Virus record (IMG/VR): IMGVR_UViG_3300046779_000460
Span: 1-32,944 of that record
Direction: 5' to 3' (one strand)
Source: a virus
Taxonomy: Duplodnaviria > Caudoviricetes
Length of the DNA stretch: 32,944 nt
Below, piece by piece: positions 4,162-24,227 of the stretch. The notes below the pieces were generated by a model. The model had not been told where the DNA came from and made no database searches. It saw only the letters and a program-made list of their open reading frames with translations. The position numbers and the translations under genes are program-made. Positions within the stretch are counted from its first letter, which is position 1. The number at the start of each line of letters is the position of its first letter.

Positions 4162-4213
4162 TCTTTATCCTTGTGGAGAATGTTTGTAAGCACTTACTTA
4201 CATTTATAGCGGT

Positions 4214-6259: not shown

Positions 6260-7519
6260 TTAGTATCCTGAAACCACATCTAATGCTTGCCAATCGTCTT
6301 CTTCGTTGTCAATACTGTAACTTGTTATCGCTAGTTGGTCGATATAGCTTAGAGCATCGGGTAAGTCGTCATGCACCTGTGGGGTAGGGAACATGAGCAA
6401 CTGGTCAACAAACTCTTCAAAGTCTTCATCGGCATTCAGTACCACTCGTCCATGCTCAAAGCGACCCTGTAATGCCCAAACAATCCTATCTACTTTTTTC
6501 TTGTTGCCATGCGTTAAATCTAAGATATGAGCGTAACAGTTGTTCTTTCGCATCAAATCACTGAGATAAGGCAATACTGCATTCTTTAGCGCCCCTCGCT
6601 CGATGCCAACTGCTAGAGGTTCATACTCTCTAATATTCTTTAAGATATTGAGTGCGGTAGTCTGAATATCCCAGCGACCAGCTTCAATCTTTTCTACAAA
6701 CCAAGTACCATCATCGGTGACTTTGACAATCGCTATAGCGGATTGGTCTAGTCTCTTCTTGGTAGCGTTAGCGCTTTTAGCGACATCCTCAAAGCCAGCT
6801 AAGTCTACTGCGATGTACCAAGACCCACTCTCAGGTTCTTCACCAAACTTAATCCACTCTTCTTTAAATAATCCTGCACCAGCATTATTGAAGGAAGACA
6901 GGTATTCTTGTCCGAATGCAAAGGAACTTAGTGTTCGCTTTGCAGCCTCAATCTCTTTCGGGTCAATCGTTTCATTGTCAGCGGTGGTAAAGTGCCACGA
7001 CTTCCAATCCTCATCTGTACCACTCTGTCCTAATTGAAACCACTCATAAAAGTGGTTACGACCAGAAGGAGTAGAGATAAACATGGCTCTACCTTTTTTA
7101 TCCGATAGAGCAGCACGAAGCACTCGTTCCCAAATCTCTGACTTGATAAAGGCAACTTCGTCCATTACCAAGTACGACAAAGACACACCACGCAATGAGT
7201 CTTGGTTGTCAGCGCCTCGAATGAGGATTTTTCTGCCGTTCACCAAACTAATCTCAAGGTTGTTGATGTGAGCAGATTTGATGACAGGCTTACCTAAGTC
7301 CATCAACAAGTCCCACATAATCGTTCTTGCTTGTCCGAGGGTTGGTGCAACATACATTACACTAGAACCTTCAGGACAGTTTAACCCTTCAATCAATAGG
7401 GTTACTGCAGACAACCTAGACTTTCCACAGCGACGACCAGCAGCAATCACTTTGAATCGAGTCTGGTCCTTAAATACAGTTTGTTGCCACTTGAGCAGTT
7501 TAAAGTCAAGATTCATCAA
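6260..7519 (-). CDS. terL: Terminase large subunit
   Basis: Walker A AGRRCGKS, Walker B LVMDE, coupling motif ISTPSG, nuclease motifs AVDLA and HDDLPDA. Confidence 0.96.
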   Translation of the reverse strand: MMNLDFKLLKWQQTVFKDQTRFKVIAAGRRCGKSRLSAVTLLIEGLNCPEGSSVMYVAPTLGQARTIMWDLLMDLGKPVIKSAHINNLEISLVNGRKILIRGADNQDSLRGVSLSYLVMDEVAFIKSEIWERVLRAALSDKKGRAMFISTPSGRNHFYEWFQLGQSGTDEDWKSWHFTTADNETIDPKEIEAAKRTLSSFAFGQEYLSSFNNAGAGLFKEEWIKFGEEPESGSWYIAVDLAGFEDVAKSANATKKRLDQSAIAIVKVTDDGTWFVEKIEAGRWDIQTTALNILKNIREYEPLAVGIERGALKNAVLPYLSDLMRKNNCYAHILDLTHGNKKKVDRIVWALQGRFEHGRVVLNADEDFEEFVDQLLMFPTPQVHDDLPDALSYIDQLAITSYSIDNEEDDWQALDVVSGY

Positions 7520-7988
7520 TGTCCTTAATTGTTACATCGGTGACATCGTTATCAATCACTTCTTCTGCTTCTATCGTTGGACTAGTCAGTCCACTAATGT
7601 TAATACTAATCTGCGGAGTACCACCACCGTTCTTACCTTCAAAGCCTGAGAGTGGTAACAATCGTTCTCCACAGAACTTTAGCATTGCTCCCTGTGCTGG
7701 GTGTCCATCTTGTAGCGCAGTCGTGATAATCTTCTCAATCACACTATCGCCATGCGTTGCCAACAGCCTTGCTCTAAACTCTGCAATTCTTGCTGCGTCG
7801 CCGGGCGGTCTGCCCACCACGCCGGGATTCTTCTTCTTGGCGAGAGCCTTGTTGGAGGGACGACCACGAACAGGTTTGCCATCGACTACTTTGCGTCTAA
7901 CCAACTTTGGTCGCTTCTTCTTTAAGACAGAACCATCGTCTAGTGACTGTGCATCTTCGGTAGATAATTGTTTTTCAACTTCTAACAT
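7506..7988 (-). CDS. Probable terminase small subunit
   Basis: Overlaps the TerL start; basic N-terminus with RGRP/GRPP motifs; C-terminal ISINISG strand. Confidence 0.65.
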   Translation of the reverse strand: MLEVEKQLSTEDAQSLDDGSVLKKKRPKLVRRKVVDGKPVRGRPSNKALAKKKNPGVVGRPPGDAARIAEFRARLLATHGDSVIEKIITTALQDGHPAQGAMLKFCGERLLPLSGFEGKNGGGTPQISINISGLTSPTIEAEEVIDNDVTDVTIKDIDES

Positions 7989-8212
7989 AACGCCTTTTTA
8001 TCCTTTAAGGAAAGACAAAGAAAAGAAAAAACTCAAAGCCCTATTAGTACTATAGTGCGCTGCCGTCAGGCTAAGCTGTTCGCTATCAGAGGGTTTCTTG
8101 GTAATTGTTTTTCACCAAGTGGTTTAGCGGTGGTTTAGTGCGCTATAATAAATCCGCTGCTTGCAGGGCTTATATGTTTCTTTATAGTGTGTGTCGTTTA
8201 ACTTGTAAGGCG

Positions 8213-8241
8213 ATTTTAGCACATTTTTGCTATTTTGTCAA
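8213..8241 (-). promoter_or_regulatory. Sigma70 promoter for the terminase/portal operon
   Basis: TTGACA-17 bp-TAAAAT with extended -10 TG and AT-rich upstream region. Confidence 0.85.
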
Positions 8242-8353
8242 GCATTATTTTCATAGTAGGGTTATTGTGTCGTCTGCGACTGAGCGGGTCTGCACTGGCG
8301 ATATAGGTCTCCGCTGGGGACAATTCCGACCTCCTACGGAGTGAGCATTTCCA

Positions 8354-8420
8354 TTGACTGTGTCCCTATTTTATTCTACCTTATTAATCAATGACATACA
8401 GCATTGTTGACTGTGTCCCT
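8354..8420. repeat. 14 bp direct repeat TTGACTGTGTCCCT, two copies
   Basis: Exact copies at 8354-8367 and 8407-8420. Confidence 0.9.
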
Positions 8421-8550
8421 TTTTTCTTAATTATCATAGTCCTATTTTACTCTTTTGTATGCTATGGAGGCTCCGCCAACATTACACAACATAGTCTACC
8501 CCACCCCCCCTATGTTAGTTAGCACTTACTTACATCTATATCGGTCTGTG

Positions 8551-8606
8551 CGAATATACGCATATACGAATATACGCATTGACGCATATACGCATTGACG
8601 CATATA
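8551..8606. repeat. Seven tandem 8-mers (CGAATATA/CGCATATA/CGCATTGA)
   Basis: Read directly in exact 8 bp phase. Confidence 0.92.
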
Positions 8607-8672
8607 TCATAGACCAATATAGAAAAACTATTGAGCCTGTGTTGGCAATAGAGAATATGTATGGGTCGATGA

Positions 8673-8731
8673 TGCACCTATTTAGTGCAACCTAATGCAC
8701 CAATCCAGTACACCTGCACCAGTATAGTGCA
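8673..8731. promoter_or_regulatory. Three tandem NtrC-like boxes (TGCAC-N7-GTGCA)
   Basis: TGCACCTATTTAGTGCA, TGCACCAATCCAGTACA, TGCACCAGTATAGTGCA; matches the known NtrC consensus TGCACC-N5-GGTGCA with 1-2 mismatches each. Confidence 0.6.
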
Positions 8732-8741
8732 GCATCATCCA

Positions 8742-8842
8742 ATAGCGCCAAGCTATTAAGAAACTACAATTGATAGTGTTTACCTATCAGGGCCGTGATA
8801 GTGTTTGCCTATCGATTCCGGGAACTCATAGGCAGCACCTAT
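8742..8842. promoter_or_regulatory. Four ATAG-N7-CTAT boxes (OxyR/LysR-type)
   Basis: Perfect copies start at 8742, 8773, 8798 and 8828; two one-mismatch copies lie at 8617 and 8648. Confidence 0.6.
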
Positions 8843-9015
8843 TGTCACCCAGTACAAACCCTTAGATACTGTTTAGACTGCATTAGAGGGTCATAGAGGC
8901 GTTTTTACCTGTTTTGATAGTTTAGTATTAAGAGGATGCCATGCTCTGGTTTCGAGGGTAAACCCTAATATATAAAGCATGAGCAAATCATAACTAAATT
9001 GTATAAAGAAAAGTG

Positions 9016-9044
9016 TTGACATACTATATAGAACTGTCAGACTA
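9016..9044 (+). promoter_or_regulatory. Possible early sigma70 promoter
   Basis: TTGACA at 9016 with A-rich upstream element; the -10 is weak (TG-T-CAGACT); lies upstream of the first plus-strand gene. Confidence 0.45.
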
Positions 9045-9089
9045 GAGTCAGTTGTACATTTTCAACAGTAGATAAGAAAGGCAATAACC

Positions 9090-9299
9090 ATGAAGATTAC
9101 ACATCATTGGAATGTAGAACGGGAAGACGGCACAAACTATACAAGATTCTTTCTTGATGATGGTAAAACACTACAATTAGAATCAAGCGATGATTCTTGG
9201 ATTTTAAGAGGTCAAACAGGTCGTAAAATCAGCAGTAAAACATCAGTATTAAATGCAATTAAACTAGTATCAACATACTTTGACGAGGTAAACGCATGA
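9090..9299 (+). CDS. Early hypothetical protein
   Basis: 69 aa, GAAAGG RBS, first gene of the plus-strand block. Confidence 0.75.
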   Translation: MKITHHWNVEREDGTNYTRFFLDDGKTLQLESSDDSWILRGQTGRKISSKTSVLNAIKLVSTYFDEVNA

Positions 9300-12058: not shown

Positions 12059-12087
12059 ATTATACTCAATTTTGTAAATGTTGTCAA
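12059..12087 (-). promoter_or_regulatory. Perfect-consensus sigma70 promoter, antisense to the early genes
   Basis: TTGACA-17 bp-TATAAT on the minus strand. Confidence 0.85.
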
Positions 12088-12110
12088 GTCTTTTATTTTT
12101 GTCTTATGTA

Positions 12111-12138
12111 TTGACTTTTTATGGTTATGTCTTATGAT
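12111..12138 (+). promoter_or_regulatory. Sigma70 promoter for the methyltransferase/replication block
   Basis: TTGACT-16 bp-TATGAT, back-to-back with the antisense promoter. Confidence 0.65.
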
Positions 12139-12565: not shown

Positions 12566-13930
12566 ATGAACTATCTTAGTGTTTGTAGTGGTGTTGAGGC
12601 GGCGACAGTAGCGTGGCATTCGTTAGGATGGCAACCTGTTGCATTTTCTGAAATTGAGTCATTTCCATCAGCAGTACTGGCTCATCATTATCCAAATGTT
12701 CCTAATCTTGGGGACATGACTAAATATAAGGAGTGGAATTTAAATGAATCAATTGACATTCTTGTTGGAGGAACTCCCTGCCAATCATTCTCAGTCGCAG
12801 GACTTCGTAAAGGACTTGAAGACCCACGAGGAAACCTCGCACTCACCTATGTTGGAATTCTTGACCGATTTAGACCCAAGTGGTTCATTTGGGAAAATGT
12901 GCCGGGTGTCCTCAGTTCAGGCGGTGGACGGGATTTTGGAGCCTTCCTCGGGGCGGTGGCTGAACTCGGGTATGGGTTCGCATACAGAGTGCTTGATGCT
13001 CAAAACTTCGGAGTCCCACAAAGGCGCAGAAGAGTGTTTGTTGTCGGACATCTTGGAGACTGGAAACCTGCAGCAGAAGTATTATTTGAGTCCGAAAGCC
13101 TGTCAGGGGATTTTAAATCGGGCCGCAAGACGAGGAAAAGTGTTACCGGTTTTGTTGAAAGTAGCTTTGGACAATATCGTGAAGATGTCATCGCAGGAAC
13201 AACCAAAGCCAGTGGAGGAGTCTTAGGTGGTGGTTCGGAAACATTCTATGTTGAAGACATTGCAAATTGTTTACAGACTACTTGTCATGAATGGAGCAGA
13301 GCAGATGGTTTTAACATGATTGCGTATGAAAACCATCCATCCGATAGCCGTGTTCAAGAGATGGGCGAAACCTGTCAGACTGTTACATCTACATGGGGAA
13401 CTGGCGGTGGTAACATTCCGTTCGTGCAGAATGTTTCGTATGCTTTACAGGGTGCAGGCGCAACAAGTCAAACTGGAAATGGGATGGGATATAAGGAAGA
13501 GCAGTCCTATACATTAAATACGACAGATGTACATGGTGTTGCGTTCGGTTGGCAAAACAGTTCCAACCAAAGTATGTCGGTGGATACTATTTCACCAACA
13601 TTGGATAAAAGCAAAACACCTGCGGTTGCAGTTCCATTGACAAATATTGTTGCACCAACTCTGACGGCATCCAATAACCCAAGTCGCTCACCGCAATCTA
13701 CTGAAGTCACTAATCAAGTGGCATCTGTCTATGCTGCAAGCACCGCAGTTCGTCGATTAACGCCTATAGAATGCGAACGATTACAGGGATTTCCTGATAA
13801 CTACACACAGATTCCTTGGAATAAGAAAGTTTCTGCTGACTGCCCGGATGGTTTGCGTTACAAAGCAATGGGTAACTCAATGGCTGTGCCTGTGATGAAC
13901 TGGATTGGCACACGCATTAATAATCTGTAA
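12566..13930 (+). CDS. C5 cytosine DNA methyltransferase
   Basis: Motif I variant SVCSGVEA, catalytic GGTPCQSFS, ENV, QRRRRVF, RRLTPIECERLQGFP and GNS; long variable region. Confidence 0.95.
   Translation: MNYLSVCSGVEAATVAWHSLGWQPVAFSEIESFPSAVLAHHYPNVPNLGDMTKYKEWNLNESIDILVGGTPCQSFSVAGLRKGLEDPRGNLALTYVGILDRFRPKWFIWENVPGVLSSGGGRDFGAFLGAVAELGYGFAYRVLDAQNFGVPQRRRRVFVVGHLGDWKPAAEVLFESESLSGDFKSGRKTRKSVTGFVESSFGQYREDVIAGTTKASGGVLGGGSETFYVEDIANCLQTTCHEWSRADGFNMIAYENHPSDSRVQEMGETCQTVTSTWGTGGGNIPFVQNVSYALQGAGATSQTGNGMGYKEEQSYTLNTTDVHGVAFGWQNSSNQSMSVDTISPTLDKSKTPAVAVPLTNIVAPTLTASNNPSRSPQSTEVTNQVASVYAASTAVRRLTPIECERLQGFPDNYTQIPWNKKVSADCPDGLRYKAMGNSMAVPVMNWIGTRINNL
12744..13226 (+). CDS. Overprinted +1-frame methyltransferase partner polypeptide (beta-subunit-like)
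   Basis: 160 aa with its own AAGGAG RBS at 12728-12733; contains LSDILE...KYYLSPKACQGILNRA, resembling a segment found in C5 methyltransferases. Confidence 0.75.
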   Translation: MNQLTFLLEELPANHSQSQDFVKDLKTHEETSHSPMLEFLTDLDPSGSFGKMCRVSSVQAVDGILEPSSGRWLNSGMGSHTECLMLKTSESHKGAEECLLSDILETGNLQQKYYLSPKACQGILNRAARRGKVLPVLLKVALDNIVKMSSQEQPKPVEES

Positions 13931-22319: not shown

Positions 22320-24227
22320 ATGACAGAATATAAGATGAGTCCCTACAATACCTTTATTGCTAAATCACGATACAGTCGCTATCTTGACGATAAAGGTCGC
22401 AGAGAACACTGGAGTGAAACAGTAGCACGATACTTTGACTTTATGACAGAGCATCTCAAGACCAAACAGAACTACACACTATCGCCTGAGTTACGCAAAG
22501 AATTAGAAACTGCTGTTGTTAATCTTGAAGTAGTGCCGTCTATGAGAGCTGTGATGACAGCAGGACCAGCACTAGAGCGTCAGAATGTCGCAGCATTTAA
22601 CTGTTCATATTTACCAATCGATGACCCCAAAGCCTTTGACGAAGCAATGTACATTCTTCTCTGTGGCACTGGTGTCGGCTTTTCTGTGGAGCAGCAATAT
22701 GTTTCTAAACTACCTGAAGTCCCAGAGCAGTTGTTTGCTAGTCAGACTACTATTGTGGTGTCGGATTCTAAAGAAGGATGGGCTAAATCACTTAGACAGC
22801 TCATTGCTTTACTGTATTCTGGTGAAGTTCCAAGGTACGACTTATCCAAAGTTAGACCTGCCGGAGCTAGACTCAAAGTATTCGGAGGTCGTGCTTCTGG
22901 ACCCGGACCTTTGGAAGAGCTTTTTAAGTTCACTATTGCCAAGTTTAGAGGGGCAGTTGGTCGTCGTTTGTCGTCCATTGAGTGTCATGATATTCTGTGC
23001 AAAATCGGGGAAGTTGTTGTTGTGGGTGGAGTCAGACGGAGTGCAATGATTTCCTTGTCTGATTTGTCAGACGACAAGATGGCACACGCTAAAGCAGGTA
23101 ACTGGTGGGACGGTCAAGGACAACGAGCCTTAGCCAATAACTCTGCTACCTATGCTGAAACACCTAGTATCGGTCAGTTTATGCGTGAATGGTCAAGTAT
23201 CTATGAATCACACTCTGGAGAGCGAGGTATATTTAATCGTGAAGCATCTCAGAAACAGGCAGCAAAGAATGGTCGCAGAGACGAAACCTATGCTTTTGGC
23301 ACTAACCCTTGTAGCGAAATCATTCTTCGTCCTTATCAGTTTTGTAATCTTTCCAGTTGTATTGTGCGTAGCTACGATACTGTATCTACCTTGGAGAATA
23401 AAGTCCGCTTGGCAACGATTTTGGGAACCTTCCAAGCATCGCTAACAGAGTTTCCTTACCTGCGTAAGATTTGGGAAAAGAACACCAAAGAAGAGGCGCT
23501 ATTGGGTGTGTCTATGACCGGTATCTGTGACAATGAACTACTGAATAATCCTGATGATGAAGACTTACCTGCTCGATTGGAGAGACTAAGAGATGTTGCT
23601 ATCACTACTAACATTGAATTTGCTGCAACTATTGGTATTAATCAGTCTGTGGCGGTTACTGCTATCAAACCAGAGGGAACAGTTTCTCAGCTTTGCAGTA
23701 CTGCTTCTGGGATTCATCCTCAACATAGCAAGTATTACATACGCCGTGTTCGGGCTGATAACAAAGACCCATTAACACAGTTTATGCTCTCCTCTGGCTT
23801 TGTCGGTGAGCCTTGCTATCTAAAACCAGACTCTACTACTGTCTTTAGCTTTCCTGTAAAGGTAGACGATGGTGGACTATTGCGTGAAGACTTAACTGCG
23901 ATTCAGCACTTACGGCTTTGGTTATTGTTCCAACGGCATTACTGTGAACATAAACCATCTGTTACCATCTCAGTGCGTGAAGATGAGTGGATGGATGTTG
24001 GGGCGTGGGTGTATCGCCACTTCGATGAAGTAACTGGAGTGTCTTTCCTACCAATGGATGGTGGCACTTATAAACAAGCGCCTTACGAGGAATGTGATGA
24101 GGAGACTTATAACAAGTTAAAAGCCTTGGTTCCCAATGCCGTAGACTGGGAGAACTTCAAAGAGTATGACGATAATGTGGAAGGCGCTCAGACTTTGAGC
24201 TGTACTGCAGGCGGATGTGAGATTTAA
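22320..24227 (+). CDS. nrdJ: Class II (adenosylcobalamin-dependent) ribonucleotide reductase, monomeric RTPR type
   Basis: FNCSY, TNPCSEI, FCNLS, IKPEGTVSQL and C-terminal CTAGGCEI; no beta-subunit gene adjacent. Confidence 0.93.
   Translation: MTEYKMSPYNTFIAKSRYSRYLDDKGRREHWSETVARYFDFMTEHLKTKQNYTLSPELRKELETAVVNLEVVPSMRAVMTAGPALERQNVAAFNCSYLPIDDPKAFDEAMYILLCGTGVGFSVEQQYVSKLPEVPEQLFASQTTIVVSDSKEGWAKSLRQLIALLYSGEVPRYDLSKVRPAGARLKVFGGRASGPGPLEELFKFTIAKFRGAVGRRLSSIECHDILCKIGEVVVVGGVRRSAMISLSDLSDDKMAHAKAGNWWDGQGQRALANNSATYAETPSIGQFMREWSSIYESHSGERGIFNREASQKQAAKNGRRDETYAFGTNPCSEIILRPYQFCNLSSCIVRSYDTVSTLENKVRLATILGTFQASLTEFPYLRKIWEKNTKEEALLGVSMTGICDNELLNNPDDEDLPARLERLRDVAITTNIEFAATIGINQSVAVTAIKPEGTVSQLCSTASGIHPQHSKYYIRRVRADNKDPLTQFMLSSGFVGEPCYLKPDSTTVFSFPVKVDDGGLLREDLTAIQHLRLWLLFQRHYCEHKPSVTISVREDEWMDVGAWVYRHFDEVTGVSFLPMDGGTYKQAPYEECDEETYNKLKALVPNAVDWENFKEYDDNVEGAQTLSCTAGGCEI

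Follow-up and report, generated by a model that had tools for sequence, protein, structure and literature searches.

In the genome of an uncultured podovirus, a strip of about 450 bp is tiled by blocks that look like binding sites for several different host proteins. We put the probability at roughly 45% that this strip loads host proteins onto the end of the genome with which entry is predicted to begin, to aid entry or to anchor the DNA. That the binders are host proteins, whatever the purpose, is very probable in our view. The array itself (positions 8515-8966 of the window, by which we mean the whole stretch of 32,944 nucleotides that was analysed) is real, as every block beats dinucleotide shuffles. 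A sequence-only reading had described this tiling by distinct motifs ahead of the early genes, and each block lies where that reading had placed it.

The window covers most of the phage's genome, which has two divergent gene arms with the strip between their promoters (Table 1). On the minus strand, the structural arm encodes the capsid, the portal, the large terminase subunit (TerL), and a probable small subunit (TerS) for which PHROG and Pfam gave no match. On the plus strand, the early arm begins with small ORFs and continues with a methyltransferase, a primase-helicase, a DNA polymerase, exonucleases, and a ribonucleotide reductase. Among the 49 ORFs of the window, PHROG gave no match to an RNA polymerase, an integrase, or a regulator family. 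Complete-looking relatives are 36-39 kb, so about 4-5 kb of the genome is missing from the window, and the sequence indicates a lytic podovirus of about 37 kb. The phage was found in freshwater and estuary metagenomes. A DNA search with positions 7900-9200 gave no match to cultured phages, and searches with TerL, capsid, polymerase, and portal reached only distant ones (the best portal hits were at 22-26% and the best polymerase at 49%), so there are no mapped termini to borrow. In RNA runs, at most 10% of the window's words were matched. We also note that the phage encodes its own DNA methyltransferase (454 amino acids, 12566-13930) and ribonucleotide reductase (22320-24227), and that a perfect sigma-70 consensus at 12087-12059 faces left, opposing the direction of the early genes, with a rightward one at its back (the two are within 12059-12138).

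Table 1. Features of the window in and around the array.
Feature	Position	Strand	Basis or remark
Second SlmA site, perfect	4186..4197	.	Just downstream of a leftward promoter-like pair (4242-4237, 4219-4214; by eye), ahead of head genes
Terminase large subunit gene (TerL)	6260..7519	-	PHROG phrog_2, E 5e-41
Probable terminase small subunit gene (TerS), first gene of the structural arm	7506..7988	-	Position only; conserved in relatives
Sigma-70-type promoter of the structural arm, directed away from the array	8213..8241	-	11/12 consensus match plus extended -10
Two copies of the G motif, left of the array; inside the array in other relatives	8354..8428	-	
C-tract and TATG, rich in G if read on the strand of the terminase genes; the array's constant anchor on the left; candidate signal for packaging or a genome end	8499..8514	.	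Relatives
SlmA-type site, 12-bp core 8518-8529, one mismatch to the published rule	8514..8533	.	Rule match
Seven tandem 8-mers, likely ArsR-family (sulfur-sensing repressor type) operator array	8551..8606	.	Host gene context
LysR-type box pair 1, 31 bp apart	8617..8662	.	Box pattern
Lineage-wide conserved core, overlaps the first NtrC box	8659..8678	+	Loose pattern in 30/42 relatives
Three NtrC-type boxes	8673..8731	.	Box pattern and host matrix matches
LysR-type box pairs 2 and 3, 31 and 30 bp apart	8742..8842	.	Box pattern
Block common to several relatives, e.g. L007	8860..8945	+	Sequence comparison
A palindrome, host-type intergenic motif, sole block near the early promoter	8955..8966	.	Host matches and position
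Predicted first early promoter: perfect -35, extended -10, 16-bp spacer	9016..9043	+	Absent from a stricter promoter scan
First early ORF	start 9090	+	ORF list

The SlmA-type site contains TTAGCACTTAC at 8519-8529. Six ATAG-N7-CTAT boxes start at 8617, 8648, 8742, 8773, 8798, and 8828 (the first two with one mismatch) and form three pairs, and three TGCAC-N7-GTGCA boxes start at 8673, 8696 (with one mismatch), and 8715. The perfect boxes of the entire 32.9-kb window, four of the first kind and two of the second, are all inside the strip, and the palindrome at 8955-8966 is unique within the window. When 8515-8966 was shuffled 1000 times with dinucleotides preserved, the counts of 8-mers (seven units are in register; six in register were used for this count), LysR-type boxes, NtrC-type boxes, and the palindrome were never reached, and the count of the single SlmA-type site was reached 15 times. 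Because the patterns were drawn from the same sequence, this test alone flatters the blocks, and the independent check comes from relatives and from host genomes. The sole listed ORF inside the strip is a GTG ORF of 52 codons on the minus strand (8519-8677), and relatives interrupt its DNA by indels of whole blocks.

To collect relatives, we took 80 of 265 viral TerL loci and added 19 from a motif search; a TerS match was obtained for 85 of the 99. We removed 7 duplicates and a further 28 loci that lacked the C-tract or the first ORF (mostly at contig ends), which left 51 strips, including the window's, and dereplication at 85% gave 42 (L086 and L087 of these came from the motif search). The strips run from the conserved C-tract to the first early ORF and are 182-684 bp long. 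The family names that we use for their motif patterns are our own assumption, save those tied to a cited paper. The counts, given as sites, phages, and shuffle mean, are 45, 30, and 0.1 for SlmA-type T; 23, 16, and 0.03 for its V variant; 27, 18, and 1.1 for LysR-type; 28, 14, and 0.03 for NtrC; 15, 11, and 0.3 for LexA; 21, 21, and 0.07 for the A palindrome; 14, 8, and 0 for the G motif; 18, 5, and 0.3 for IclR-like; 8, 4, and 0 for Fur; 5, 5, and 0 for SdhR; and 7, 4, and 0.5 for the 8-mer, where related phages are not independent and several patterns come from these same sequences. All motif types are rare in the flanks apart from G, IclR-like, and Fur, some of whose sites are to the left of the C-tract as well. 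Patterns for FNR, CRP, NrdR, PhoB, ArgR, and a first-try HexR gave no sites in the 42 strips. A loose DnaA pattern was not above shuffles (4 vs. 3.3); DnaA boxes are present in 2 of the 42 and, by eye, stand in tandem in L027 and L049; they are absent from the window's strip. At least three kinds of site were found in 32 of the 42 strips and an SlmA-type site in 35, while 2 had no recognised site.

The sequence-only reading had suggested comparing this region in related phages for conserved or swapped motif blocks, and swapping is what we see. Blocks are gained and lost whole, they differ between phages whose TerL is 98-99% identical, and block content does not follow a quick TerL tree. For example, L002, the nearest relative by TerL among the matches listed (99%), has different blocks and lacks the 8-mers and most of the LysR pairs. 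The strip of L015 (TerL 95%) is nearly equal to the window's. Some arrangements seem worth recording. In L002 and L011, the A palindrome recurs between early genes, as if it were part of a repeated promoter unit. A further group (L515, L592, L608, L612, L616, and L643) also has the C-tract, with two SlmA sites, LysR boxes, and 8-mers after it, but the sequence upstream is different. In another phage lineage (L355, L358, and L387), a gap of 0.6-1.2 kb holds mixed arrays of SlmA, NtrC, A, IclR-like, and Fur sites.

Which bacterium would supply the binders? Of 22 candidate stretches in our genome collection, one was a 4.5-kb contig (TerL 96%) within a Burkholderiaceae MAG, which is possibly a binning accident. 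The genus of this MAG has genomes of 1.6-2.8 Mb, and a protein of one member, G005, has Polynucleobacter homologs at 93-98%. These clues point, weakly, to Polynucleobacter as the likely host. We ran 20 matrices built from the phage sites on G005 (2.0 of its 2.02 Mb), using our own gene calls; comparisons of site strength are based on these phage-derived matrices and on published rules. The top three sites of the LexA-type matrix lie before umuD, recA, and mraZ (24.8, 22.3, and 19.6 bits; the best control site had 17.1). The top four of the NtrC-type matrix are at an ATP-grasp gene, at glnA twice, and at an amidohydrolase (25.4-18.7; control 17.4). The top five of the Fur-type matrix are all intergenic, two of them at feoAB (28.7-17.7; control 12.0). 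Also, the SdhR palindrome, a published site (PMC4494728), is present in 11 of 13 genomes and never in the control, and precedes genes that we read from their translations as aceA, mdh/sdh, and acnB. So several of the motifs do match host regulons, in keeping with the earlier view of the strip as a set of look-alikes of different host sites. For most of the other 17 matrices, including LysR, IclR-like, and 8-mer, G005 offered no clear target; those without one were I, H, C, R, W, Y, Z, K, J, U, O, and 8. In host genomes (L256, L258-L262), 6 of 7 matches of the G motif show it as two inverted copies, 50 bp apart, in the gap that separates a Y1 transposase (RAYT-like) gene from gltB; in the phages, its copies are repeated directly. 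Rather than a regulator site, the motif may be an element of the REP type.

Two of the motifs had been likened to OxyR/LysR and NtrC sites. The NtrC reading of the 17-bp dyad boxes holds, given the host nitrogen genes, and NtrC exceeded the cut-off in 4 of 5 candidate-host genomes. The LysR family is supported by shape, as the boxes would make pairs for a tetramer: among the 27 perfect boxes in the relatives' strips, 20 are followed by another box at a distance of 30-31 bp. A spacing of 31 bp between paired boxes is that of the apo form of LysR-type regulators. Both the T-N11-A pattern and paired sites are described for this family in the accessible text of PMC11495319. OxyR itself was not established. 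In the genus, the LysR-type/OxyR motif is not enriched over controls, a composite matrix of the pair has no good site in G005, and 1 of 9 pair matches in the host is at an ahpC/dps promoter. Furthermore, the dyads of 17 host ahpC promoters are 22 bp apart, as opposed to 30-31 bp in the phage strips. The 8-mers are likely an operator array of the ArsR family. Tandem 8-mer arrays occur in 8 of 41 genomes, at 11 distinct places, and the reversed control is equally frequent, mostly in the same genomes, so gene context is the one guide to their identity: 4 of the 11 places are before an ArsR gene (3 confirmed with Pfam), the others are by cytochrome bd, sulfur-transport, or soxC-like genes, and 1 is coding. 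At least 15 of 17 host places of the A palindrome are intergenic, often before a formate-dehydrogenase-like, GNAT, or coxB gene; in the genus it has 25 strand matches vs. 15 for the control, which is not a clear excess.

The motif nearest the C-tract had been called an operator. It matches instead the nucleoid-occlusion site of SlmA, for which a 12-bp rule was derived from E. coli chromosomal sites (PMC3020112). Exact matches to this rule number 31, in 24 of the 42 strips, with 0.0 in shuffles and 0 in the flanks, and the flanks of the phage sites resemble those of SBS12 and SBS17 (as given by the primers in PMC4117426). What differs is the setting: the E. coli sites are chromosomal, while these are on phage DNA and mixed with other predicted sites. 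The published rule supersedes two other explanations that we considered, a TetR operator and, because 8 of 10 host matches are inside priA, a coding artefact. SlmA is over the NCBIfam cut-off in all 5 candidate-host genomes. In the terminus region of G005 (0.8-1.2 Mb), there were 0 of 28 matrix hits vs. 6 of 36 for the control, and across 16 genomes the central fifth had 2 of 59 sites (these sites are not independent, and the origin was assumed). The total number of sites in the host is no higher than in the reversed control. For the V variant, 8 of 14 host matches are at one conserved intergenic spot. That SlmA is encoded and that its sites avoid the terminus suggests that Polynucleobacter has nucleoid occlusion of the E. 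coli type.

SlmA sites are not confined to such strips. When about half of the collection was covered, the extended SlmA pattern was found in 124 viral stretches, from which we estimate about 240. Of 80 matches that we examined, 77 are between ORFs, a share that is biased because the pattern holds stop codons; most are single sites, and 3 have at least three kinds of site nearby. In unrelated phages (L083 at 2250-2530, L398 at 1050-1330, and L357), a G-tract and the terminase genes are immediately preceded by SlmA-type sites, numbering from 3 to about 10. The window's own second site precedes the ORF at 4161-3910 and the head genes; the five closest relatives shown have a similar site there, and so do L407 and L425 before the homologous ORF. 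It is possible that SlmA is used as an operator there.

We favour a role tied to the genome end because the array is anchored on the C-tract, because its blocks are interchangeable, because some of the predicted binders are not transcription factors, and because SlmA arrays in unrelated phages flank a G-tract on the matching side, ahead of the terminase genes. In E. coli, SlmA is reported not to act in transcription (PMC3020112). DnaA is also among the binders for which strips have sites, even though the phage encodes its own polymerase and primase-helicase. SlmA sites are 9-14 bp from the C-tract in 18 of 47 cases. By analogy with the T7-type layout, we infer that the genome end is at or near the C-tract and enters first. 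Packaging that starts at the G-tract and proceeds into the terminase arm would make the strip the last DNA to be packaged and the first to be ejected. The blocks (SlmA, NtrC, the LysR-type tetramer, and the likely ArsR-family repressor) would then load host proteins onto the first-entering end, and these would hold the DNA or help to draw it in until the task passes to the host's RNA polymerase at the promoter near 9016. Any host protein that binds tightly would serve, which would account for the interchangeable site types. As to the ends themselves, only contigs exist: depth was flat and no ends were found, and contig ends did not pile up at the C-tract in a scan in which 109 of 162 C-tract matches were outside the lineage filter.

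Some observations argue against this reading. If any binder serves, then low-copy regulators of the ArsR or IclR type would be an odd choice. Also, 7 of the 42 strips lack an SlmA-type site, and the 2 strips in which no site was recognised, the LysR-type and A sites close to the promoter, and the matrices without a clear host target weigh against it too. And not all SlmA sites can serve entry, given the perfect site at an internal late promoter (4186) and the mostly single sites between ordinary genes in other viral contigs.

The strip could instead act once it is replicated. As a multicopy decoy, it would titrate host repressors (LexA, Fur, SdhR, and ArsR-type) and so derepress genes for repair, iron, the TCA cycle, and respiration, while DNA-bound SlmA would inhibit FtsZ rings and block division. 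We regard this as possible, if doubtful. Of the models, this alone is directly paralleled by an experiment: in E. coli, a multicopy plasmid with two SlmA sites causes filamentation and lowers the excess of SlmA that is needed to block colonies from 40-fold to 4-fold (as described in the accessible part of PMC4117426). Two SlmA cores are present in 17 of the 42 strips, sites come in near-consensus multiples, and the sites that match in the host are found ahead of recA, umuD, feoAB, aceA, mdh/sdh, cytochrome bd, and sulfur genes. On the other hand, a decoy could titrate proteins from any position, yet this strip keeps its anchor at the C-tract; the effect in E. coli was obtained with plasmid-expressed SlmA; and NtrC is an activator, so that its titration would seem to bring no plain benefit. 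The two models can hold together, as the decoy effect, above all the activation of SlmA, would be a later side effect that is compatible with a role in entry. Tentatively, we also entertain a broader idea: a mix-and-match cassette across this lineage of freshwater podoviruses might be an accessory function without genes, which would capture host proteins that bring in the genome and then, once amplified, would stop division via SlmA and titrate chosen repressors (so as to retune repair, iron, sulfur, and TCA metabolism), with a menu that evolves as a variable gene module does.

Besides a decoy array and protein anchor points on the first-injected DNA, the sequence-only reading had proposed a multi-input sensor, in which host regulators tune the early promoter so that lytic growth follows the state of the host. 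Our promoter calls are crude and are wrong in some relatives, and we counted a site as proximal if it was within -60 to +20 of the predicted early promoter. By this measure, 8 of 27 LysR-type sites and 8 of 23 A palindromes are proximal, which is to say that they abut the promoter in about a third of cases. The other types usually lie 100-500 bp upstream, in an order set by the C-tract: proximal sites were 0 of 47 for SlmA, 0 of 29 for V-type, 0 of 4 for DnaA, 0 of 13 for IclR-like, 0 of 14 for G, 0 of 10 for the 8-mer, and 1 of 8, 1 of 8, and 1 of 6 for LexA, Fur, and SdhR. In the window, only the A palindrome is near the early promoter, 77 bp from its -10. Furthermore, no sigma-54 promoter pattern was found in the window and just one among the 42 relatives, so the NtrC boxes lack a cognate promoter. 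Spacing is not fixed, and the repressor sites do not overlap the promoter. A sensor is thus improbable for most blocks. What speaks for one, besides the proximal sites, is the operator-like position of the SlmA site at 4186, the final few bases and the -35 hexamer that several phage LysR pairs share with host ahpC promoters (by eye), and precedent in other phages, where sites for CtrA (proposed) and Spo0A (shown) are described (in the accessible text of PMC9437464). A sensor role may apply to the promoter-proximal A and LysR blocks only.

It is highly unlikely, we think, that the blocks are packaging or replication signals for the phage's own proteins that resemble host sites by chance. T7 does have short repeats beside its terminal repeat, and the strip adjoins the terminase genes. 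The C-tract and the lineage-wide core, which had 0 matches in G005, may well be signals of this kind. However, blocks change while TerL stays 98-99% identical, some match published SlmA and SdhR sites and host promoters exactly, and no transcription-regulator family was seen among the window's ORFs (49 with PHROG, 9 with Pfam), which leave out the missing 4-5 kb. We give very little credence to a structured non-coding RNA or a neutral repeat expansion: the strand folds better than shuffles (z -3.4), but palindromic sites alone give such folding, the covariation term across five relatives is unfavourable (+3.88), Rfam gave no match near the gathering score, and blocks are gained and lost whole, and on the first three of these grounds we rejected RNA structure.

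The closest known counterpart of the strip, and a precedent for a role in entry, is the injection stop signal of phage T5, which has eight DnaA boxes in early-entering DNA and a proposed role in DNA entry (bioRxiv 10.1101/866236). Like our strip, it is non-coding, rich in repeats and palindromes, and has boxes for a host protein. In the accessible text of that preprint, one type of box is described, in a fixed order and about 9 kb into the genome, with paired DnaA boxes in fixed inverted repeats. In contrast, our strip has many types that are freely swapped, spans about 450 bp ahead of the first promoter, and has no such paired boxes. Sites for host regulators are known from other phages, including CtrA in alphaproteobacterial phages, Spo0A in phi29, and LexA in GIL01 (accessible text of PMC9437464). 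These too are clusters of host-factor sites in intergenic gaps or in terminal repeats, but each case described there involves one regulator that acts at promoters, whereas this lineage has many kinds of site that are mostly distal to promoters and are interchangeable.

The left end of T7-like podoviruses has a terminal repeat, short repeats, and promoters for the host's polymerase. The window resembles it in having a non-coding lead before sigma-70 promoters and small early genes; it differs in that no phage RNA polymerase was seen, in that the lead is built of look-alikes of host sites, and in that there is no cultured close relative. In the literature that we covered (mostly outside of subscription journals), we found no description of mixed arrays, decoys, or SlmA sites in phages. 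What our analysis contributes is a swappable cassette that extends across a lineage and whose blocks were checked against host regulons.

These findings bear on how the DNA of podoviruses passes its first few hundred bases into the cell, and on whether phages manipulate their hosts with DNA sites instead of proteins. Dozens of versions of one short cassette exist naturally in this lineage, for which candidate binders are named and host regulons are identified, and the likely host is an abundant lake bacterium that can likely be cultivated. The menu of sites may also serve as a signal for predicting the hosts of uncultured phages.
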